64,000 nt of DNA, taken from positions 32,001 to 96,000 of the IMG/VR virus record IMGVR_UViG_3300037067_011302, one strand, 5' to 3'. Below, in pieces: positions 14,201-45,387 of this stretch (position 1 is its first letter; every line of letters starts with the position of its first letter). The stretch is from a virus (taxonomy: Duplodnaviria > Caudoviricetes). The position numbers were made by a program, and so were the translations under genes. Below the pieces are notes generated by a model, which was given only the letters and a program-made list of their open reading frames with translations, was not told where the DNA came from and did not search any database.

Positions 14201-14242
14201 GACGTAAATAGCGGCGGTGGGCGAGGACGATGCCTCCTACGT

Positions 14243-15783: not shown

Positions 15784-15824
15784 CTAAATAATCAAACGGC
15801 ACGTTAAAACGTGCCGCTCAATCA
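15784..15824 (-). terminator. Hairpin terminator fused to TATTTA late box (copy 1 of an exact 41-bp duplicate)
   Basis: Inverted repeat CGGCACGTT-AA-AACGTGCCG, then TTTGATTATTTAG on the minus strand; identical to 21708..21748. Confidence 0.75.
15785..15790 (-). promoter_or_regulatory. Putative late promoter TAYTTA (representative of 17 copies)
   Basis: Minus strand at 762, 14205, 15785, 20442, 21709, 24849, 27993, 30008, 31241, 37008, 38685, 45371, 46152, 54434, 58010; plus strand at 31709, 54470; all but 21709 lie just upstream of virion, lysis or candidate head genes. Confidence 0.8.
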
Positions 15825-15825
15825 T

Positions 15826-16101
15826 TCAACTGAACCTGCGCAATCTTGACGGTGAGTCTGTCCTCGTATTTCCCAACATCGCTCGCACCTCAGGAGAATT
15901 CTGGTGTAGTGCCCTTGAGTGCGACTCATTGTCCTTGTCGGAATTCCTGCTGAGTTCCTTTGAAATACGGGAGATGAACCACCTCTTGTACTCAACTGGC
16001 AACTCATACGTTTCCTTCCAGGTAAATCCTCCATAATAAATAAGGATGAAGCTGGGTTCGAGGATCAGCTTCTCTTTATCTGCCGACGTTAGGCCAAAGA
16101 A
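15826..16101 (-). CDS. Tail assembly chaperone C-terminal extension (gp51/GT-like), probably reached by a +1 frameshift
   Basis: FFGLT...LIYYGGFTWKETYELPVEYKRWFI; no credible own start; overlaps the end of 16076..16960. Confidence 0.6.
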   Translation of the reverse strand, partial: FFGLTSADKEKLILEPSFILIYYGGFTWKETYELPVEYKRWFISRISKELSRNSDKDNESHSRALHQNSPEVRAMLGNTRTDSPSRLRRFS

Positions 16102-16960
16102 AGGATACGCCGATCGGCATCGACACCTCTTCAACGTGGCCACACGATTCACACGCACACTCCTGCGTCATCATGATTCCTGGCTCGTTGTCCTTGATGT
16201 AGTTACGCAGTGCCAACGAATCACGGGCAGGCATTGACTTCACGAACGTTGCGATCTTGGACCGATCATTGATGCCGTCGATCGATATGATGCTATGAAG
16301 CAATTGCGTGGTCACCACGGCATCGTTCCTCATGCCGAGCTTCTTCTGTCGATCCTTCATGACCATGATCTCTTCTTCATCGGCACCGGTCATGAACTTG
16401 AACGCAACGCGCTTCTTCGTGTACGGAAGCAGGAACATGAACTCATTCACGCCGACGGACGTCGGTTCGAGTTCCAATCGCTTCACGGGAAGTGCAGTGA
16501 GGTCGAACACGTGTTTCGACTTCGCCTCGCACTCAGGACATTCGATCTCAGCGTCGTACTCTGCACCGTATCCCGTGATCCGGATCGCAATCATCAGGGC
16601 ATTCCTGTCGCCGGCGAGCAACGTTGTCGGTTCAACGTTCCTGTTGACGAGGCACGACTTGATGAGCTCAGTGATCACCGTGCCCTTCTTCAAGAGAGCA
16701 CGAGACGTCAGGATGTCCTCCTCCTTTGCCGTCATTGCCTTGATCTCGACCATGTCCTGGCGATGGAACGGGTGGGGCGGTGCGTACGCAACGCCGTTCG
16801 AAGGCAGAGGCACAATTTCAGTCGGAATCTCAAGGCTGAGCTCGTGCCTCTGTGGTTGTGGTTGAGGCTGCACGACGACCTGTCGGGGCACGGGCACGTC
16901 TTCCGTCGAATCAGTTGCAAACACCTTGTTCTTCTGCTCACGTTCGTCCATTGTGTTCAA
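16076..16960 (-). CDS. Baseplate hub assembly / tail chaperone (T4 gp26-like)
   Basis: VPLPSNG, MTAKEEDIL, GDRNALMIAIRITGYG, two CxxC pairs. Confidence 0.85.
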   Translation of the reverse strand: MNTMDEREQKNKVFATDSTEDVPVPRQVVVQPQPQPQRHELSLEIPTEIVPLPSNGVAYAPPHPFHRQDMVEIKAMTAKEEDILTSRALLKKGTVITELIKSCLVNRNVEPTTLLAGDRNALMIAIRITGYGAEYDAEIECPECEAKSKHVFDLTALPVKRLELEPTSVGVNEFMFLLPYTKKRVAFKFMTGADEEEIMVMKDRQKKLGMRNDAVVTTQLLHSIISIDGINDRSKIATFVKSMPARDSLALRNYIKDNEPGIMMTQECACESCGHVEEVSMPIGVSFLWPNVGR

Positions 16961-17136
16961 TTCTCCGCGTCAATTGTCGATTGTAAACCACGGACGATGA
17001 AATGTATGGTCGAGCGTCAAAACGTTGACATGAATTGCTCCACGATTGTCACGAGCACCGCTCGGCCAAGAACCATAGAACCCCTCACTCGGCCGACGAA
17101 TGCCCCTCCTGCCACCGTCTGACGCTCACGAGAGGT

Positions 17137-17433
17137 TCACTTCTTGGCTCGTCTTAGCTCCTGTTCAACGATCACTCGTAGGTCAGTCGCCGACAGCTTC
17201 ACGCTCTCCGACTGACGCACGGCTCCCGGGGACCTCTCACCGACCAATGCATGCGTGACAATGCTCACCTGCTTACGTAGTGGATCAAATGCACTCGCCT
17301 TCTTCAGAGCAGCGATGATGTCCTCGAACGCCTCAGCAGCTGAGTCGGCAATGTTCATGTCCTCAACGTACTCATTTACCGCCTCGAGCTCTTCCTTGAT
17401 GATCCGTTTGAGATCGTTGTTCGAAATTTTCAT
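17137..17433 (-). CDS. Small protein with two capsid-targeting-like motifs
   Basis: MKISNNDLKRIIKEEL and VKLSATDLRVIVEQEL. Confidence 0.65.
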   Translation of the reverse strand: MKISNNDLKRIIKEELEAVNEYVEDMNIADSAAEAFEDIIAALKKASAFDPLRKQVSIVTHALVGERSPGAVRQSESVKLSATDLRVIVEQELRRAKK

Positions 17434-17489
17434 CTTGCCTCGTAGACAAATATGTTGATCAACAACTCTCTAAGCGAGAAACGTTCGAT

Positions 17490-17780
17490 TCAAATGACGG
17501 GAGCGTCACTGTAAAAGATCAGCGACGACGGGATGGGCATCGGTTGGACGTCGATCACACCCTTCAGGTACGATGCTGAAAGAAGTCGACCCACTGTTCG
17601 CCACAACGCGTGTTCATTTGCCCACACGATCGTGATGATCGACTGTCCTCCTTCGTCGAACACAGAAACGACGGTGCCAACGCCTCCTAAACAACGTGCA
17701 ATTGCACCGGGCACAAAATTGCCGTCGACCTCAATGCCGTTCCAACGAAGGTCATCATGCGTGTAACTTTTGATGATCAT
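17490..17780 (-). CDS. SH3-like small protein ending in an MCP fragment (QPM / Gol-equivalent region)
   Basis: C-terminal QPMPIPSSLIFYSD versus MCP QPMSLPSGLIFYLD (10/14 identical). Confidence 0.75.
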   Translation of the reverse strand: MIIKSYTHDDLRWNGIEVDGNFVPGAIARCLGGVGTVVSVFDEGGQSIITIVWANEHALWRTVGRLLSASYLKGVIDVQPMPIPSSLIFYSDAPVI

Positions 17781-18031
17781 GCGTATCCCTGGTTCTTAAG
17801 CGCCCTCAAGATGTCACGATCGATCTCTTCTGCAAGTTGGCGTGTAAGTTCGTCAATGAGTGGTTGTCTGTAGTCAAAGGGATTCGTCGCCCACACGATC
17901 GTCATGCGCTCGTCCTGAATTGAGACGACGACACCGCACGACCTATTGACGTGCACGATCGATCCGGCAATGATCGGCTGTTCAACCTCGATGTCTCCTA
18001 GCGCACCGGTGAAGTAACTTTCAACGAACAT
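17777..18031 (-). CDS. SH3-like small protein ending in an MCP fragment (EIDREIL helix)
   Basis: LIDELTRQLAEEIDRDILRAL versus MCP LTSILSEQIALEIDREILNDL (11/21 identical); paralogous N-terminus with 17490..17780. Confidence 0.75.
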   Translation of the reverse strand: MFVESYFTGALGDIEVEQPIIAGSIVHVNRSCGVVVSIQDERMTIVWATNPFDYRQPLIDELTRQLAEEIDRDILRALKNQGYA

Positions 18032-18252
18032 AACAACACTCTATCACCGGACGAGCGTCGTTCATCATAGCACATGCACGATTCAGCTGCGCCCCTGTGG
18101 GGGTCAATTTTATTGTCCGTGATCGAACACCAGTCTGTCCGACGACACTTGTCGAAGACGCGCTCTGTCTTGGTGATGCAGTGCTTGCAGTTCCTACAAC
18201 GTTTGACCTTCGACGATTGTTCGGGAGTGATCATGGATTGAACGTACAACAT
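17998..18252 (-). CDS. Small Cys-rich protein; likely start 18234
   Basis: CRNCKHC...WC...C.CY pattern. Confidence 0.55.
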   Translation of the reverse strand: MLYVQSMITPEQSSKVKRCRNCKHCITKTERVFDKCRRTDWCSITDNKIDPHRGAAESCMCYDERRSSGDRVLLCSLKVTSPVR

Positions 18253-18272
18253 GGTGAGGTGTAGTTTTTTAT

Positions 18273-19910
18273 GTGTCGTCTATTGCCAGAATTACGTGTC
18301 CTCGATGTGAAGCGTCATTTGGACAGGAAAAACGATTCATTGAACACCTAAAAATCGTTCATGAAATTGATGACGTCCTTGAATTTTATGTCAACACATT
18401 TCACAACGGAATACACCCAACATGTTCCTGCTGTGACGACTGCAAAGAACGTCTGTCGTGGTGTAGTTGGAAAAAAGGATTCACATCGAAGTACATTCGA
18501 GGGCACAATGCACGAGTGTACAACGTATATGCGGATCCTTCTTATCGTGATAAACTCGCCGAATCAAGACGAAAGGCGATAGAAGAAGGAAGGTTTACTT
18601 CATGGAACAAAGGTCTCACGAAGGAAACCAACGAGAAAGTTGCATCTGCGTCTAAGAAAGCTGGTGTTACGCTACATGAACGTTATGTAACGGGTTCACT
18701 CATCAATTGGCGTATATCAGATCCAGACAAGGGGGCTGAGGCTGCACACAAATCATCGCTCACAAAACGTGCACAATTTGCTTCTGGCGAACTATCTGGT
18801 TCGTGGAATAAGGGTCTCACGAAGGAAACAAGCGTTGCTTTGATGAAGATTGGTAGAAATATTTCAAAGAGTTACGATCGTCGTGAAATAAAGCAACGTT
18901 TCAGTATAGAAGAATTTGATGCACAGATTGCTGCACACTCTGACAAATTCGAACTGATCACAGATCCATTGTTATATAGAAGTAGTAAACGAACGATCCT
19001 TGAATTCAAGTGCAAAAATTGTGGAGCAACACAATTCAAGACACTTGTAAAATTGAACAATACGCCGAGGTGCTTTGAGTGCATGCCAAAAGCGTCAATT
19101 GCACAAATTGAAATTTTTGAGTTTGTCGAATCACTTGGATTCAACACGATTCTAAATGACAGAAAAACAATTTCACCGTTAGAGTTAGACGTGTATGTCC
19201 CATCTTCATCATTCGCCATTGAATTTAATGGGCTCTATTGGCACAGTCGACCACCTCTGAATGATGAATTTAGAATGCAGAAAAAATTGAATACATGCAA
19301 AAAAGTTGGAATTGACTTGTTAAACGTATTTGAAGATGAGTGGGAACATCATCAAGAAATCATTGAATCACTCATCGCCACTAGACTTCACATCTACAGG
19401 AGAACTTTCAGTGCTAAAGAACTGAACGTTGTCATTTTGAACACTAACGACGCAAAATCGTTCTTTGACGAAAATCATCTCGAATGCTACGTCCCAACAA
19501 CTATCACATTTGCTCTACAAACAATTGATGGTGAAATAGTTGCTGCGATGTCATTGAAAAGACTATTTCACAAAGAAATCAATGCATCTGTCGAAATTGC
19601 CAGAGCTTGTTCATCGATGAATTGTCATGTCTTTGATTGGGTAGAACGTTTGTCAGAGGCGTCACTAAATTGGTCTCAACAAACGTATGGAATCGATCGA
19701 TTGACGATATTCATCGATGAACGCATTGATGATGTGAAACAATTTTCACCTTGTTGGACACAGATAGGTGCTGAACAAACACCTAGATCATGGATCACCA
19801 ACAACAAATCAAGATTAGAACCACTCGACGAAAATTATTTGTCGAAACACGACAAAAAGATTTTTGGATGTGTTAGAACGAAGTGGTCTTATCCAAGATT
19901 TAATTCCTAG
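18273..19910 (+). mobile_element. Free-standing homing-type endonuclease (C2H2 + Cys module, WNKGLTKET repeats, DUF559/Vsr-like nuclease)
   Basis: CPRC..HL..H, two WNKGLTKET, ELDVYVP..FAIEFNGLYWH, VFEDEW; AT-rich; antisense to the tail operon. Confidence 0.8.
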
Positions 19911-19913
19911 ATT

Positions 19914-20402
19914 TTAATAATCAAGGATCCAATTATCTCCACGTAGTGTTAATGCGATTTCGACCAACCCATGATCTTCATAAGTTAACTCCCCAAAATC
20001 GCAATCCGTTATCATAACACCTTTTCCGCGCCACATCTCTATTATTGTGCCGATGGGATCTACGAGCTTAAGGTCCGCGTCGCGCTTGTAGAAGTCAGCG
20101 TAACCCGCTCGGCCGGACACACTCTCGTAGTGCAGTCGAATCCACTCCATGACCTGTTGCGCTCCCGACGGTGCAATCGGATCGTGCAGCGTGATCGCCA
20201 CGGTCGAGAACTGTGGCTTGCCGGCAACGTAGCGGTGCGAGTTCATGAACGGGATCGGCACCTCTTCGATCGTCATCTGCGGTCGCTTCGCGGTCTTGAC
20301 GATGTACGCGTCAATTCCCTCAATCATTAAGACCCACCTGTTCTTTCGCTTTGGTTCGAAAGCAACATTCAGCATCGATGTAACGTCTAGTGTCTCGGCC
20401 AT
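19914..20402 (-). CDS. Tail tube protein (T4 gp19-like)
   Basis: Start corrected to MAETLDV (GGAGG SD); FEPKRKNRW, ITLHDPIAPSGAQQVMEW, GRAGYADFYK; follows the sheath genes. Confidence 0.9.
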   Translation of the reverse strand: MAETLDVTSMLNVAFEPKRKNRWVLMIEGIDAYIVKTAKRPQMTIEEVPIPFMNSHRYVAGKPQFSTVAITLHDPIAPSGAQQVMEWIRLHYESVSGRAGYADFYKRDADLKLVDPIGTIIEMWRGKGVMITDCDFGELTYEDHGLVEIALTLRGDNWILDY

Positions 20403-20475
20403 TTCTTCATCCTCCTGCGGACGCTCAGTTCCGCACGAACTTAAGTACAAGTCGTGGCGAACAATCTCTCGCTGA

Positions 20476-21693
20476 ATGATTATGTTCTCACAGACAATGG
20501 ATGGAATCACAGGATCAACGATCTCGATCATCACGTGTCCGATCTGTGGTGAGTACTCATCAAAGCGTGAAACTAACGTTGAACGACACATGTTCGAAGC
20601 GCACGGCACGACGCTCGTTGACGAATACGTCAAGCTGCACGGACGACGACAGTGTGCGTGTGGGTGTGGCGGCGCGACGACGTGGCACGGTTGGAGGAAG
20701 GGATTCAGCACCTCGATCTGCGGTCACAACGGTAACATCTACTCGTTCTACGACCACAACAAAGCAACCGCCATCAGCGAAAGAAGGCGCGCGGCACTAC
20801 GTGGCAAGCAAAGTTGGGCAAAGGGATTGACGAAAGAAACTGACAAACGCATTGCACGACGAGCAAAATTGTCCACAATCAGCAAGCGTAGGACTACCTC
20901 ATGTGCTCGTGGTTCACGTGGTCAGACTGAGCTGTCGAAGTTCGTCGAATCGCTCGGCTTCACTGTCGGAAACAACGTCAGAGGAATCATCGGAAACAAG
21001 GAACTTGATATTTTCCTCCCCGAACACTTGTTTGCAATCGAGTACAACGACCTCTACTTACACAGCGAGAGGTTCAAGAGTTCGACGTACCACGAGGAAA
21101 AGTCGTCTCGGTGTGAGGCGATCGGCCTGTCACTGATGCACGTGTTTGAAGATGAGTGGGTGTACAAGAGGAAGATCGTCGAGTCAATCATCAAGAATCG
21201 ACTGAACGTTCCCGACAAACGCATTGACGTCGGATCATGCACTGTGAGAACGATCGACAGGAACACATCCGACTCATTCTTCGACGAATGTCACCTAGAC
21301 GGAAAGAGCGACGTGTCAGGACAGTCAACGATCGCGCTCTTCAACAATGAAGAGTTGGTCTACGCCATTGCAACGACGAACGGTGAAGTCCTGAGGTGCT
21401 GCCCGGCGCTGGGAACGAATGTCCCGGGTGGCCTCGTTGAACTATTGAAACAGCGACCAAACGTCAACTCGATCATCGTCGACGAGAGGCTCGGCAGCAC
21501 GAACTCAGCACTTCGCTCTGCAGGGTTCTCTCCGACGAACGAGACAACACACCGCTCATGGTGGACAGACTACGATTCCAGGTACGACTCATCGCTGTGT
21601 ACTAGAGACGAAGCGGGCACAAGAGGTCTCTACTTCATCCACGGGTGCAGCGTTAGGAGGTGGAAACGAATCACTACTCGTCACGATTTATAA
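20476..21693 (+). mobile_element. Free-standing homing-type endonuclease, paralogue of 18273..19910
   Basis: CPIC..H...H, CACGCG, WAKGLTKETD, ELDIFLP..FAIEYNDLYLH, VFEDEW; sits between sheath and tube. Confidence 0.8.
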
Positions 21694-21707: not shown

Positions 21708-21748
21708 CTAAATAATCAAACGGCACGTTAAAACGTGCCGCTCAATCA
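21708..21748 (-). terminator. Hairpin terminator plus TATTTA box (copy 2 of the 41-bp duplicate)
   Basis: Identical to 15784..15824; 20 nt after the sheath stop codon. Confidence 0.75.
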
Positions 21749-21767: not shown

Positions 21768-24700
21768 TCACAAGGAGGTCGCTGAATTACCAACCACGAA
21801 GTCCAGCGATGCGTACTCAAGTGCCTTGAGCGGCTTCACAAAGATCTTTCCACGGATCGTGTTGTTCTCAACGTCAGCCTGAGTCGTCGTCGAAGAATCG
21901 ATCATGATCTTGTACCTCTCGAGCCCCGACAACGCCTGAACCCTCTGCAACCTCGGTGTGACGGCCGCGGAGAACTTCGCCAGTGTCGTTTCCCTATTCT
22001 GCTCGAACATGATCGTGTCTGCGATCTCTCTGACCTGTCGACGAATGTCGATCATGAGTCGCCTGACGTTGACGCGGTCGAGCGACGAAGCGGCAGCCTG
22101 GAGCGTCTTCTGCCCCCACACCATCACGCCACCCTTCGGCGCAGTTCCAGACGACGGAGCGCCAGGGAATGCAATAAGCGGATTGATGTTTGCGTCGTAC
22201 AACACGTCCATGTTGTTCTTGGAAAGTTGCACCCGAGCTTCGAGGGTCGTCGACAGAGCACCTCGAGTGAAACCGGCAGGTGCAAACCAAGGATATCCAA
22301 CCGCATCATTCAAGGCCAGTGCTCCGAGGACAACGACCGACGGAGGAACGAACAGGTTGGTGTCCGTGTTTGGATCGGTGATGCTGACGTCAGGGAAGTA
22401 TGCAGCCGCGAATGACGTATCGAGCGAACGATCAGTCAGTTTCGTTGCCGTCAATTGGACGGCTGGGAACTGTGAATCAGCGGTGACATTCTCCTCATCG
22501 TTATCGACCTGTTCGATGTCCATGACGTACATGGCATCAAACCTCTCCTCGACGGCATCGATTGCAGCGTCTGTCACGATCGGATGCCTAATGCCAGGAA
22601 TCGCGAGCAGCTGAATGTCAACGTTCACGACGTTCTTCATCACCTCGATTGCCTTCAGGTACGCCCTGACGTTTGGACCGTTGTTGTACAGGCGATCTGC
22701 ATCGTTCATGTCAGCAACGACTGCGTTGTCATTGATGTTTGTTTCATCCTCATTGAAGAGGTTCGTTCCGTCAAATCCACCCTGCATGAACGCCGTGAAC
22801 TTAACGAATCGCCTGTTCGCTTGAGTGATGTCATCGACCGAGAACCTTCTTGACTTTGCCGTCTCGTCAGCCGAGATGACGCCGTTCCGGACGTACGTTG
22901 CCTGATCCCATTCCTGAGGATCGGCGAGCGTCGTCGATGAGGTGACCACGGACAGGTTCTCGAGGGTGAACATGTTGCGACAGAACTTGTCAGAATCAAT
23001 GATTCCATTCTCCGCAGACTCGGCTGTCCCGGCGTTGTCACCGGCCGCAAATCCCATGTTGGTGACCGCAAATTCAGGGAAGTACTTTGCGTACGATTCG
23101 AGCGACTCATTCTTGAGAGTGCTGGCGTTCTTTGTCGTCAACGACGTGACGTGCTCAAACTGCGTTCCCCAATATAGGAGAGGATTGACGAGCACCTTCA
23201 CGCCTGATCCCTGTGTGATATTCTCGCGGAATGGAACGGGCGGCTCGACTGCACGCTTGTACGCAGTCGGAACGATCAATTGTTGCGTCGTCGAACCACT
23301 GACGGGAACGAAGCTCGTCATTGGAAGCGAACCAGACGTCACAATGTGATAGGGACCTCGGAATCCAACAGGAAGTGCGGTGGGATCGACGGTCTCATTC
23401 TCAATTCCGGAGTCGACCTCGATGCGAATGAGGTTTGACTTATTCTCGTAGTTTCCCTCGACCACGAGCTTCTGTGCAGACTCCGTGCGATCGAAGTCAT
23501 AGAATGCGTGAACGTCGCCGATGATCTTTGAGATGTAGCGATCTGACGAAGGATCGAGGCTAAGACCTCTCCACTTTTCGAGCGCAACTTGATTGACGTC
23601 GTTATCGTTCCAATCTCGAACGATCAGATCAAACGTTCCGTACTTGTACGTATCGTCAGACGAAGGCGCGAGGTTCTCGATCGACAACTTATAGTTCGTA
23701 GAGATTCCGGAACCAGCATCGAGAGCATGGACCCTAAACAGGTTGACCGGATTTCCACCGAATTTCTGTGAAATGAACCACGGCGATCGAGCGTGCGAAA
23801 AGCGATCAACGAACGTCTCGTAGTTAGGAACGTATGCAGTTCCAACATTGCGAGCACACGAACCAGTTGTGATGAACGCAGCGGCTTCAGCTCCTGACTT
23901 GAACGCCGTCGATGCACCTGCACCGCTGAGGTTATCAACAATTCCTGTTCCGGTCACGACCGCCGTCGTCGGGTGAATGTCCCAGTGAGCGTACAGGTAG
24001 TGTCCGGCCTTCTGACAGAGCAACGGATCGGTGTTGAATACGTTCGCAAAGTAGTTCGGCGAAGTGTAGTCAAACGATGCAGTGAGCACGTTCGGATACA
24101 ACGAGTCGAGGCCCTGATGGCCATTCAGGAGCATCACAAACTCCTCCTTGGCGACGGTACCGTCCAACAACACGACCGCACCCTCGACCGCACCGTGGGC
24201 TGTGGTGGTGGTTGCAATGAGTGTCGACGGAGGAGGAGTGTTGTCGCCCTCACGAGAGTTCGACAACGTGAGGATGACGCCTGACGGTGCCATCAATACG
24301 CCACGAACGATCGGAATAGACGATGTGATTCCAGGCGTGATGCCCCCGGCACCCTGTAATCCTGCATCACTAAAGATCGTTGAACCCAAAGATTCAGACA
24401 TCAGTGCACAGAGAAAGTACGTCCGACCGAGAACGCTGTTGCTGCCTGAGTTTGCGTACTCATTGCCGAACAACGCTCCATCGCTCGCACGAGGTTGATC
24501 CTCACCGACGGTGAAGCCGGCGCTCGTGACGCTGCCATCTGCGTTGCGCTTGAGGCCATTTCCGACGCCGAGCACTCTGATGAATGTTGCGGCACCAGCA
24601 TTGCGTAGCCACTCTCTGACGGCCAACGGTCCGAACTTCTTTCCATCCGACAGCCCAAACTTCGAGTAAAAATCGTCGACGATGCCGACGGTGATCGGAA

Positions 24701-24830: not shown

Positions 24831-24941
24831 TGTTTAACCTCTGACGTGTAAGTATCGTTGTCATGGTGAACACGCAGCGTGAAATGCACATCGGCGCAGC
24901 ACCACTTGGCACCGCGCCGACTTTTATCGTATGATCGTCGA

Positions 24942-27962: not shown

Positions 27963-28011
27963 TTTATGCTCCTACAACTGCGCTAGTCAGCATAAGTATG
28001 GCGTGCGTGAG

Positions 28012-41697: not shown

Positions 41698-43599
41698 TCA
41701 GATGATGTTCATGTCCAGCACGGTCACGGTACCGTAGAAGTCCGAACGAACCATCTTCTTCCCGTACCGCGTCATCACGCCCTTTCGCGGCGTGAAGTCT
41801 TCAGGAGCGAAGATCGTCGGCGTGACTATCATCGGGACGTACGGAGAGTACACATAACCGCACTCGAGGTAAGAACCACCCTTGTAGCCGACGAGAATCT
41901 TGTTCTTCGGGAAGTATGGATCCTTGTAGACAGTGAAGCGGTTCGACACCGTACCGATCGCCTCGGCACCGATGGTGAATGGACTTCCGACCTGTCCCTC
42001 ACCGTCCATCGTGTACTTCGGCTTGTAGAGCACCGAGCTCTCCAGGATCGTGCAAACGTCGGGTCCGGTGACCATGAAGTTCGCGCTTCCGCGGAGGGTC
42101 TTGCGGTGAATGGTGTTGGCCACATCGATCACGGTCTCGATGAGGGTCTCGTACCACTCGCGCACGGTGCCGGTGAACTGCGGTCCGATGGACAGGGACG
42201 TCGACAGCGTCTGAGGCTGACCGGTCGTCTTGTTCACGAACCTACCAGGAGCGCGCGACCAGAAGTAGTTGGCGCCGTTCGCCTGAGTGACCAGATCGTT
42301 CAAGATCTCGCGGTCGATCTCGAGGGCGATCTGCTCGGACAGGATGGACGTCAGCTCGACCTCGGCATCCAGCGAGTGGTATGCATTGAGGTCCTGTGCG
42401 AGTTCCGGTGACCAACGAGCGCGCAGCTTGCGGGTCGTTGCGGTGATGGCGATCGACTCGATCTTGATGTCAATCTCAGGAATCGCCGGCGTCGGTGAGG
42501 CACCGAAGTCCGACTCGAACGAAGGCACGGTGACGGTGGCACCAGTGGAGGTGTCAACTGACAGTCCAGCGTTGATTGCACATGAGGCCTTCTGGGTCGC
42601 GGTCGTCATGGTGGGAATCGAGCCGCCGTTCGACAGCTTGATGACCATCTGCACGTGAGTTCCGTTCATGGCATCGGGAGTGAACACGCCCGTGGACGAG
42701 GACCAGTTACCACGACGATTCAGCCTGCGAAGGTTGAACGCGCCGTAGCCGGATTGGTAGGACTGTCCCCACGCAACCGCGCCAACGTCACCCTGGAAAC
42801 CAAACAGCGCGATCTGGTCGATTGCCGTGAGGTCAATCTTCGGGAGCACCGATTGTAGTGCAGCAACGGTGAAGTGGACGAACGTCACGTCCAGGTCATT
42901 GTTGGTCACCGCGTTCTCAACGTCGGGATCGTACTGCAGCTGCCTGATGTTCGTTCCCGTCAGGTCAGTGGAAGCCTTGATGATTCCGGAGGCCGCCCAA
43001 GCGTCAGCCGCACCGGTCCAAGCGCCGATGTCCAGGCCAGAGCCGGACAACGACAGAGTTCCGGAGTGAACCTTGCTGTAGCCGCTGCCGACGAGGTCAT
43101 ACATGCCGCCCGTGGCGAGAGAGCCCGATTGGATGCCCTTTGCCGTTGGGTTGGCATAGATGCTCTGCCCACGCTGATAGGTCTCATACGTTGCAGAATT
43201 GGACAGCGAAGAGCCAGCGTCGCCGCCGACGTTGCTACCGTAGGTATAGTCGAGATAGAAGATCAGTCCGGATGGGAGCGACATGGGCTGAATGGAAACC
43301 AGCTCATTCGCGACCAGTCCACCGAACACCTTGCGGACGATCGGGAAGGCAACGTTCGAGAAGCCCTGGATCTGCCCGCTGGAGGTCACAGTTCCGCCGC
43401 CGGTCGAGATTGCATTCGACTCGCGGAGGCACTGGGCCGCCTGGTTCTCGAGCAGCTGTGCCATCGTCTCGCGCTTGAAGCCGTCGAGTCCGCGGAGCAA
43501 TCCTGTCCTGCTCCACTTCTCGATGAGTCGGCTGCGCTCGGCACCGATGTTCCGGTCCTTGAGCCCGGACGTCAAAAATTCGTGTGTAATGTGTTTCAT
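41698..43599 (-). CDS. Major capsid protein (T4 gp23-like)
   Basis: KWSRTGLL, LLENQA, VSIQPMSLPSGLIFY, RKLRARWSPELAQDLNAYH, EIDREIL, FTPRKGVMTRY. Confidence 0.97.
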   Translation of the reverse strand: MKHITHEFLTSGLKDRNIGAERSRLIEKWSRTGLLRGLDGFKRETMAQLLENQAAQCLRESNAISTGGGTVTSSGQIQGFSNVAFPIVRKVFGGLVANELVSIQPMSLPSGLIFYLDYTYGSNVGGDAGSSLSNSATYETYQRGQSIYANPTAKGIQSGSLATGGMYDLVGSGYSKVHSGTLSLSGSGLDIGAWTGAADAWAASGIIKASTDLTGTNIRQLQYDPDVENAVTNNDLDVTFVHFTVAALQSVLPKIDLTAIDQIALFGFQGDVGAVAWGQSYQSGYGAFNLRRLNRRGNWSSSTGVFTPDAMNGTHVQMVIKLSNGGSIPTMTTATQKASCAINAGLSVDTSTGATVTVPSFESDFGASPTPAIPEIDIKIESIAITATTRKLRARWSPELAQDLNAYHSLDAEVELTSILSEQIALEIDREILNDLVTQANGANYFWSRAPGRFVNKTTGQPQTLSTSLSIGPQFTGTVREWYETLIETVIDVANTIHRKTLRGSANFMVTGPDVCTILESSVLYKPKYTMDGEGQVGSPFTIGAEAIGTVSNRFTVYKDPYFPKNKILVGYKGGSYLECGYVYSPYVPMIVTPTIFAPEDFTPRKGVMTRYGKKMVRSDFYGTVTVLDMNII

Positions 43600-45352: not shown

Positions 45353-45387
45353 TCGTTTCTCCGTGATCACTAAGTATGCGGTGCTCG

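Follow-up and report, generated by a model that had tools for sequence, protein, structure and literature searches.

This report concerns two small overlapping genes of a distant T4-like phage, found in a 64,000-nucleotide stretch of DNA (the window) that corresponds to bases 32001-96000 of the 184-kb phage record IMGVR_UViG_3300037067_011302. The nearest cultured relatives of this phage show 45-49% identity in the major capsid protein (MCP). The two genes encode proteins of 96 residues (P0001) and 84 residues (P0002), and an original prediction, made from the letters of the window, had described them as a carrier domain displaying two different fragments of the phage's own MCP (P0003), whose gene it placed ~25 kb away; the distance is in fact about 24 kb. 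We call the N-terminal module of these proteins the handle and their C-terminal part the tail, and we class tails by the MCP residues which they resemble: A for residues 79-125, B for 413-442 and C for 368-412. The main features are these:

17777-18031, minus strand: P0002 gene, 84 residues, subfamily B (handle plus a tail like the MCP spine helix), recognised as an open reading frame (ORF), by its coding score and by homologues.
17876-18031, minus strand: handle module of P0002, residues 1-52, which aligns with six other modules and matches a local family hidden Markov model (HMM) at an expectation value (E) of 1e-18.
17786-17863, minus strand: tail of P0002, residues 57-82, resembling MCP 415-442 (spine helix) by BLASTP, by subfamily profile and as a modelled helix.
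17777-17780, minus strand: 4-bp ATGA stop/start overlap of the P0002 and P0001 genes, seen in the sequence and present likewise in the relative G001.
17490-17780, minus strand: P0001 gene, 96 residues, subfamily A (handle plus a tail like the MCP N-arm and QPM hairpin), recognised as an ORF, by its coding score and by the homologue P0011.
17607-17780, minus strand: handle module of P0001, residues 1-58, by module alignment and family HMM.
17499-17606, minus strand: tail of P0001, residues 59-94, matching MCP 79-125 when the subfamily profile is compared with the MCP profile.
17505-17564, minus strand: core of the P0001 tail, residues 73-92, with the motif QPM..P....FY of MCP 100-117, by BLASTP.
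41698-43599, minus strand: MCP gene P0003, gp23-type, with a Pfam Gp23 match at 1.7e-75 and matches to solved T4 gp23 structures.
43225-43365 and 42274-42357, minus strand: the copied MCP segments within the P0003 gene, residues 79-125 and 415-442, respectively.

In both halves of the P0001 and P0002 ORFs the annotated frame is the best one by codon usage, at 0.15-0.33 bits/codon under statistics trained on 91 long genes of the genome (reference score of long genes, 0.26 +/- 0.09 bits/codon). The neighbouring endonuclease gene, by comparison, looks foreign (0.04 bits/codon, with a third-position GC content of 0.36 versus ~0.6 for the pair). As the codon usage of the pair is native and that of the endonuclease is not, we ruled out that the pair merely hitch-hikes with it. 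The ATGA overlap probably couples translation of the two genes. The proteins share, as had been predicted, an N-terminal module of ~50 residues (21/61 identical, pairwise BLASTP E 1e-5) and end in different tails, and the identical 14 bp at 17620-17633 and 17889-17902 are present in the sequence. We also considered a tail assembly chaperone pair of the G/GT kind and rejected it, since the N-terminal likeness reflects separate paralogous DNA copies instead of one frameshifted frame, and since eight relatives lack the pair in their syntenic gap.

The likeness of the tails to MCP can be seen within this genome. Residues 75-92 of P0001 match MCP 100-117 with 10/18 identities (pairwise BLASTP E 3e-5); the original prediction had extended this match back to MCP 84, but residues 84-99 contribute one identity only in the pairwise comparison. 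Residues 48-82 of P0002 match MCP 406-440 with 14/35 identities (E 2e-4), a span that includes the predicted 416-436, and the 21-mers quoted for this match are in the sequence (17/21 identical). Residues 56-80 of P0002 form a helix in a low-confidence AlphaFold model. Both tails score better than shuffled controls, as the observed score was reached by 0/5000 shuffles of the P0001 tail and by 1/5000 of the P0002 tail. Among the 1352 six-frame ORFs of the genome, MCP and P0001/P0002 are mutual best non-self matches (E 0.007 and 0.053), and an HMM built from 74 clade MCPs (73 relatives and P0003) ranks P0001 and P0002 first and second after MCP itself (E 0.017 and 0.47; next match 1.7). The P0001 tail matches this HMM with a per-sequence p of 1.2e-5, and none of 6504 ORFs from 1.16 Mb of the relatives' tail regions attains the P0001 score. 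In an all-against-all comparison of 158 genes, E values of 0.003 and 0.021 leave each match alone within multiple-testing expectation (~0.5 and ~3 chance pairs), and a Pfam scan of the two proteins gave no family at E up to 1. The joint probability that two adjacent paralogues should both match MCP by chance may be estimated at 1e-4 to 1e-3. At identical residues the codon is the same in 4/11 and 5/14 cases, and synonymous sites are randomised. The tails are thus not a recent DNA copy of the MCP gene, and their likeness to MCP has been maintained at the protein level. We can confirm the overall observation of MCP-like tails; taken alone, however, it is only weak, and it is the homologues in relatives which are decisive.

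When the MCP alignment was run over the whole records of relatives, extra MCP fragments appeared in G001 (an uncultured phage with a 309-kb record, 91% complete, and an MCP 80% identical to P0003), with seven more in G009 (318-kb record, 93% complete) and one in G013. G001 has three consecutive small genes, each consisting of the N-module and a piece of MCP. The tail of P0013 (111 residues) matches MCP 368-412 with 23/45 identities (E 4e-13), that of P0012 (96 residues) matches MCP 415-437 weakly, and that of P0011 (119 residues) matches MCP 80-125 with 25/46 identities (E 3e-15). P0002 is similar to P0012 over both module and tail (E 5e-8) and P0001 is likewise similar to P0011 (E 1e-6). The G001 genes B and A overlap by the same 4-bp ATGA (contig L170, 5039-5329 and 5326-5685), so that the order B-then-A and the overlap are kept between the two phages at only ~26-29% protein identity. 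Further members are P0014 and P0016 on contig L211 of a near-identical G001 strain, and P0015 in G013, where a neighbouring gene carries the module with a tail that does not match MCP. Short metagenome contigs supply P0017, with a B-type tail and homology to P0002 over module and tail (E 2e-4), and P0018, whose tail matches MCP 86-122 with 24/37 identities (E 1e-16).

A check proposed with the original prediction came out in its favour on these homologues. Pfam Gp23 matches are confined to the tail and lie above the gathering score of the family (PF07068, 24.4 bits) in P0011, P0013 and P0018, at 30, 34 and 44 bits; they span 36-45 tail residues and profile positions 4-48 or 135-170 of 376. Moreover, the carrier is fused to a further virion epitope, namely the third MCP segment (368-412) in G001. 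At the level of subfamilies, the A profile matches MCP 79-125 with a probability of 98.6% (E 7e-16) and the B profile matches MCP 413-440 with 69.7% (E 4.2e-5). The MCP HMM recognises the tail in six of seven members (per-sequence p 1e-16 to 1.6e-3). Whereas the handles have diverged to 11-33% identity, each of the five A tails keeps P, M, P and F of the QPM hairpin unchanged, a sign that the tail is maintained. With 84-119 residues, the family proteins are carriers of MCP fragments and not complete HK97-type subunits, which comprise an N-arm, a P domain and an A domain. The predicted architecture, a constant carrier domain with a swappable capsid peptide, is therefore borne out by the same handle standing on segments A, B and C: of the three interchangeable peptides, A is found in P0001, B in P0002 and C only in a relative. 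Chance resemblance is excluded for the A tail and is unlikely for the B tail, as judged from these comparisons. P0001 and P0002 are thus, very probably, real genes and belong to a small accessory family that occurs in a clade of large, uncultured T4-like phages and whose products join a handle to a C-terminal MCP-derived peptide. Our literature searches gave no published description of proteins made of such a handle and an MCP peptide, and the novelty rests on the architecture, not on a mechanism.

The handle is an orphan, beta-rich domain of about 47-58 residues that is not derived from MCP. Seven handle modules from three phages can be aligned, with G, G and W invariant; their signature is G..V, then G.[VI][VI], then T-[IV]-[VL]-W, and they end in T-I/V-V/L-W. 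A local handle HMM recognises every one of the seven (E 1e-15 to 1e-21; next match 0.06). The module belongs to no Pfam family and has no profile similarity to MCP, and the N-modules showed no MCP likeness in the shuffle test either. A search of 1.84 billion representative proteins with the N-module profile returned only P0001, P0002 and four giant repetitive proteins, which we judged spurious. Word-indexed searches with P0001 or P0002 alone found nothing apart from these proteins themselves, a locus search with the B-subfamily alignment gave no confirmed relative, and tblastn of the pair against cultured phages gave weak rows only. A 94-residue hypothetical protein of Krischvirus and phrog_16264 are unconfirmed leads to the pair. 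The proteins had been called SH3-like, for which there are only weak leads: SH3-like families (DUF3104, PSHCP, R67 DHFR) appear in a feature-based comparison with scores of only 0.83-0.86, Pfam SH3_17 matches P0017 weakly (E 0.15), and Foldseek against PDB found nothing at E 0.001 or better. The best Foldseek rows are alpha/beta domains of the GspL/PulL type (E 0.02-0.09), obtained with single-sequence AlphaFold models of low confidence (predicted local distance difference test score of 62 for P0001 and 46 for P0002). As the genome is rich in inteins, a split-intein C-fragment followed by a C-extein was considered as well. It was rejected: the modules end in T-I-V-W-A-N/T without the His-Asn that closes intein block G, and the residue after the module end is Glu in P0001 and Asn in P0002, where Cys, Ser or Thr would be needed.

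The copied segments can be placed on T4 gp23 by alignment of P0003 to it. Segment A corresponds to about residues 90-138 of T4 gp23, where the N-terminal arm ends and the first ordered strand follows; the Gol region lies within this segment. Segment C corresponds to about 242-286, covering the second I-domain linker and the P-domain with the counterpart of the portal-anchoring His282, and segment B to about 288-314, the spine helix. The segment copied in P0001 is thus the counterpart of the T4 Gol region, as the original prediction had it. In T4, this region turns on Lit, a protease of prophage e14, by binding to EF-Tu, and the QPM motif within it is the most conserved part of gp23 (PMC3014915). 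In the T4 prohead, the N-terminal arm touches the scaffold; once expansion has taken place, this arm forms inter-capsomer and Soc-binding contacts together with the I-domain linkers, and residues of the P-domain anchor the portal (PMC9546572). In the 74 clade MCPs, segments 79-125 and 415-442 are almost invariant.

The pair sits in the minus-strand tail module, i.e., on the late strand. Along this strand, two sheath genes are followed by a plus-strand endonuclease gene, the tube gene, a second plus-strand endonuclease gene, a doubtful Cys-rich ORF, P0002, P0001, an ORF of 98 residues, the gp26-like hub gene and the tape-measure gene. The neighbours which delimit the locus are:

18273-19910, plus strand: homing-endonuclease gene of low GC content beside the pair (PHROG homing endonuclease, 6.7e-45).
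19914 to about 20430, minus strand: tail-tube gene, flanking the hypervariable gap.
16076-16960, minus strand: gp26-like hub gene, flanking the hypervariable gap.

The Cys-rich ORF (84 residues, 17998-18252, minus strand) overlaps the P0002 start by 34 nt and has a poor coding score (-0.14). It is possibly no gene at all, and 18032-18272 would then be the leader or promoter region of the pair. The tube ORF as such runs over 19914-20711 (minus strand, 265 residues), but relatives align only to residues about 99-265, and its real start would therefore lie near 20430, just after a TACTTA at 20442-20447. The other endonuclease gene (20476-21693, plus strand) lies between the sheath and tube genes, and a TATTTA at 21709-21714 on the minus strand, just after the sheath stop, could be the former signal of the tube gene. 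The 98-residue ORF lies 3' of the pair (17137-17433, minus strand) and opens with an amphipathic leader, MKI..N.LKRIIKEE, that is reminiscent of the capsid-targeting sequence carried by T4 internal proteins from a hyperplastic locus. Relatives have small proteins in their tube-hub gaps that are otherwise unrelated and open with the same type of leader (L007:5720-6016, L007:6013-6615, L008:4124-4420, L004:8377-8673 and L003:5720-6514), and it is also found in G001 at 136829-137041 and 23698-23976, both on the minus strand.

It had been noted that the pair lacks the late TAYTTA box, and indeed there is none on the minus strand over 16043-20441. The conclusion drawn from it, that the proteins are made before the late genes, is not supported: the pair is on the late strand in the tail module, and MCP and hub genes are also without a TAYTTA directly upstream, so that its absence is uninformative on timing. 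TAYTTA itself is enriched in the window (23 matches versus 9.6 expected) and stands 3-6 nt before several late or structural gene starts. Examples, all on the minus strand, are 14205-14210, 15785-15790, 16037-16042, 24849-24854, 27993-27998 and 45371-45376. This spacing leaves too little room for an ordinary -10 box followed by a leader, and the motif may mark near-leaderless late transcripts or be a translation signal.

The family is distributed sporadically. Clear handles were detected in 3/21 related large records searched (this genome, G001 and G013) and were not found in the other 18, which are mostly fragments. The position varies as well. Here the pair is in the tube-hub gap; in eight IMG/VR relatives whose hub protein is 58-65% identical, this gap measures 0.47-4.5 kb and holds endonucleases and unrelated small ORFs, with no homologue of P0001 or P0002. 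In G001 the genes belong to an array of small ORFs, all on one strand, at 16.5-17.7 kb, and in a G013-like Logan contig they are placed among NUDIX, AAA, UvdE and Cpn60 genes. The latter encodes a Cpn60/GroEL-type chaperonin of 532 residues ~4 kb downstream of the family genes; folding of T4 gp23 depends on GroEL. G001 and its strain represented by L211 are 99.74% identical over 8.9 kb, with only 97.3-97.5% in genes B and A, and 17 differences cluster in these two genes (L170:5039-5685 versus L211:5335-5981). The ratio of nonsynonymous to synonymous polymorphism (pN/pS), 0.46 for B and 0.24 for A, comes from few sites of a single close pair and is a further sign of maintenance. The cluster is either a recombination patch or a sign of fast evolution. 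Taken together, the sporadic distribution, the variable position and the strain-level excess of differences would fit a role in conflict without showing one.

What might such proteins do? On balance, at a probability of about 45%, we suggest that the family mimics MCP that is newly made and not yet assembled, and competes with it. The tail would occupy the site on a factor that normally binds the same MCP segment, and the handle would supply folding, solubility or oligomerisation. Mimicry is favoured because the family has an accessory distribution, a mobile position and strain-level variability, and because the copied segments are ones read by other molecules; by the first three of these features, the family resembles conflict genes more than genes for assembly. 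Tentatively, and by analogy with known systems, the factor could be a host sensor which reads MCP in the manner of Lit/EF-Tu or CapRel, the proteins being decoys that blunt abortive infection, though we consider this somewhat unlikely. Just as speculative is a broader scenario, in which large T4-like phages would keep modular "trigger mimics", one handle showing the Gol/N-arm hairpin, the linker strand and the spine helix gene by gene and thereby jamming capsid sensors. From the interpretation given in the original prediction, the carrier with a swappable capsid peptide and the Gol counterpart are retained here, but not the early expression or the SH3 fold. Several observations weigh against competitive mimicry. 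A Gol-like peptide would be expected to trigger a Lit-type system and not to block it, unless its binding is unproductive. The position in the late-strand tail module fits a virion or assembly role equally well as counter-defence. The likeness of the B tail to MCP is only moderately significant even at the family level (~70%), and the tails of this phage are the most diverged of the family, with the A tail of P0001 cut short after FY.D. Finally, the low-confidence AlphaFold model of P0001 has the A-tail hairpin packed inside one compact alpha/beta domain, not displayed. Co-folding of MCP with P0001, using a 35-row MCP alignment, gave a score of 0.00, which, coming without controls, counts neither for nor against binding.

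As the main rival reading, the proteins could be accessories of capsid assembly or of the virion, their MCP-like strand or helix docking into the MCP lattice, the scaffold or the portal in place of the neighbour's segment. They would then serve as chaperones that mimic a subunit, as capping factors or as minor proteins of the head that are loaded into the prohead. Segments A, B and C do fall into contact regions of T4 (N-arm/N-fist, spine helix and second I-domain linker/P-domain; PMC9546572), the pair is on the late strand in the tail module beside an ORF with a capsid-targeting-like leader, and one relative has the phage Cpn60 gene 4 kb from its family genes. Assembly factors, however, are normally core genes, whereas this family is absent from most relatives, including the 93%-complete G009, never adjoins head genes and has no conserved position, which makes such a role rather unlikely. 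The proteins might also be weapons against co-infecting relatives, i.e., dominant-negative MCP fragments that poison capsid assembly of competitors. The near invariance of the copied segments in the clade means that one mimic would fit all relatives, the distribution is accessory and variable, and the genome is rich in homing endonucleases and other selfish elements; yet the phage's own MCP has the same segments and would be poisoned too, and no feature for self-protection was seen, so we find this idea quite improbable.

It is also conceivable that nothing functional is encoded, and that scraps of MCP generated by recombination around mobile endonucleases became fused to a duplicated small ORF. 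A homing endonuclease is adjacent, the tube-hub gap is a hot spot of recombination, an additional match to MCP in G001 is reported with in-frame stops, and in this phage the tails are weak, with the A tail truncated. The frames are nevertheless intact and use native codons, unlike the endonuclease gene; the architecture, the order of the genes and their ATGA overlap persist between proteins that are 26-29% identical; the tail motif did not change as the handle diverged; the segments do not follow the order of an MCP gene, as B (413-442) lies upstream of A (79-125); and synonymous sites are saturated, which means that the pieces are old and yet still open. The open frames with native codons, the conserved order and overlap and the lack of colinearity make debris unlikely. 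A decayed second MCP gene was rejected, as the segments are not colinear and the handle has no similarity to MCP. Least probable by far is a chance resemblance of two orphan ORFs to MCP; the E values of P0001 and P0002 alone (0.003 and 0.021 among 158 genes) and the missing Pfam match would permit it, but two adjacent paralogues both match MCP, and homologues with unambiguous MCP tails bridge them to it.

Several known systems offer partial parallels to these proteins. One is the Gol/EF-Tu/Lit system of T4 and prophage e14: the A tail of P0001 is the counterpart of the Gol stretch including the QPM motif, and in Gol, as proposed here, a short piece of MCP acts alone as a ligand. Gol, however, is a part of full-length MCP, whereas here a diverged peptide (10/18), known by positional homology alone, stands on an unrelated handle. 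In phage SPbeta, DSAD1 is a phage protein that blocks the DSR2 sensor by competing with the tail tube trigger for an overlapping site (PMC11087589). This is an analogy at the level of the concept, that is, of a small phage protein which stops a sensor from reading a virion protein. DSAD1 is not known to derive from the tail tube protein, while the candidate competitor here is a literal copy of pieces of the trigger. The gp24 vertex protein and other full-length gp23 paralogues are also cases of MCP sequence duplicated within one phage genome, but gp24 is a complete HK97-fold subunit, in contrast to the 20-47 MCP residues on a foreign domain described here; BLASTP of this genome found no gp24-like MCP paralogue. 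Eukaryotic microProteins and dominant-negative fragments such as Id and LITTLE ZIPPER, and capsid-derived restriction factors such as Fv1, keep an interaction segment and act by competition. These too are small proteins retaining only the interaction segment, though from another domain of life, and dominant-negative action is only a candidate in our case. The internal proteins of T4 combine a constant 10-residue N-terminal capsid-targeting leader with variable cargo and are encoded in a hyperplastic locus. They resemble the present family as variable small accessory genes with a constant module and a variable part in a plastic region, but the T4 cargo is unrelated to MCP, whereas here the variable part is an MCP peptide, and P0001 and P0002 have no capsid-targeting leader, although the neighbouring 98-residue ORF does.

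Capsid proteins are among the best documented triggers of abortive infection (Lit, CapRel), and it is an open question how phages with an almost invariant MCP escape capsid sensing. The family offers a concrete and cheap handle on this question, as it copies precisely those capsid segments that are most conserved, places them on small proteins of their own and does so recurrently on different carriers. If the proteins were decoys of host sensors, they would represent counter-defence built from the phage's own structural gene; if their partner were MCP or scaffold, they would form a new class of subunit-mimicking assembly regulators. Either way, the sequences show that fragments of an essential structural gene are used again as genes in their own right; current annotation pipelines call these "hypothetical" or wrongly assign them to Gp23.

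MCP fragments occur outside the handle family as well. In both G001 and G009, MCP is the large protein most often matched by small ORFs. G009 has no handle; there, small ORFs join MCP 95-123, 377-439 or 571-593 to other sequences. "Mini-MCPs" of 131-168 residues, resembling MCP 425-536 (E 1e-27 to 4e-11) and with C-termini like that of MCP, are encoded at L171:4340-4735 (plus strand) in G001 and at L174:2049-2555 (minus strand) and L175:2349-2837 (plus strand) in G009; a stand-alone mini-MCP was not found in the genome of the present phage. Two further G009 proteins, of 176 and 229 residues (L176:2568-3098 and L174:4664-5353, both on the minus strand), have an N-terminus that resembles the MCP propeptide and N-arm (MCP 18-98), and the gene of one of them is ~5 kb away from that of MCP. 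Both are possible head proteins sharing the scaffold-binding region. We also asked if neighbours in the G001 array carry pieces of other core proteins, and rejected this, as the other ORFs of the array have no such match at E up to 2. Elsewhere in G001, small ORFs copy the C-terminal 70-90 or internal 50 residues of two other large proteins (78857-79333 and 85495-85992 versus 86077-87762, all on the minus strand; 115064-115462 versus 81837-83570, both on the plus strand), and fragment reuse may thus extend beyond MCP.

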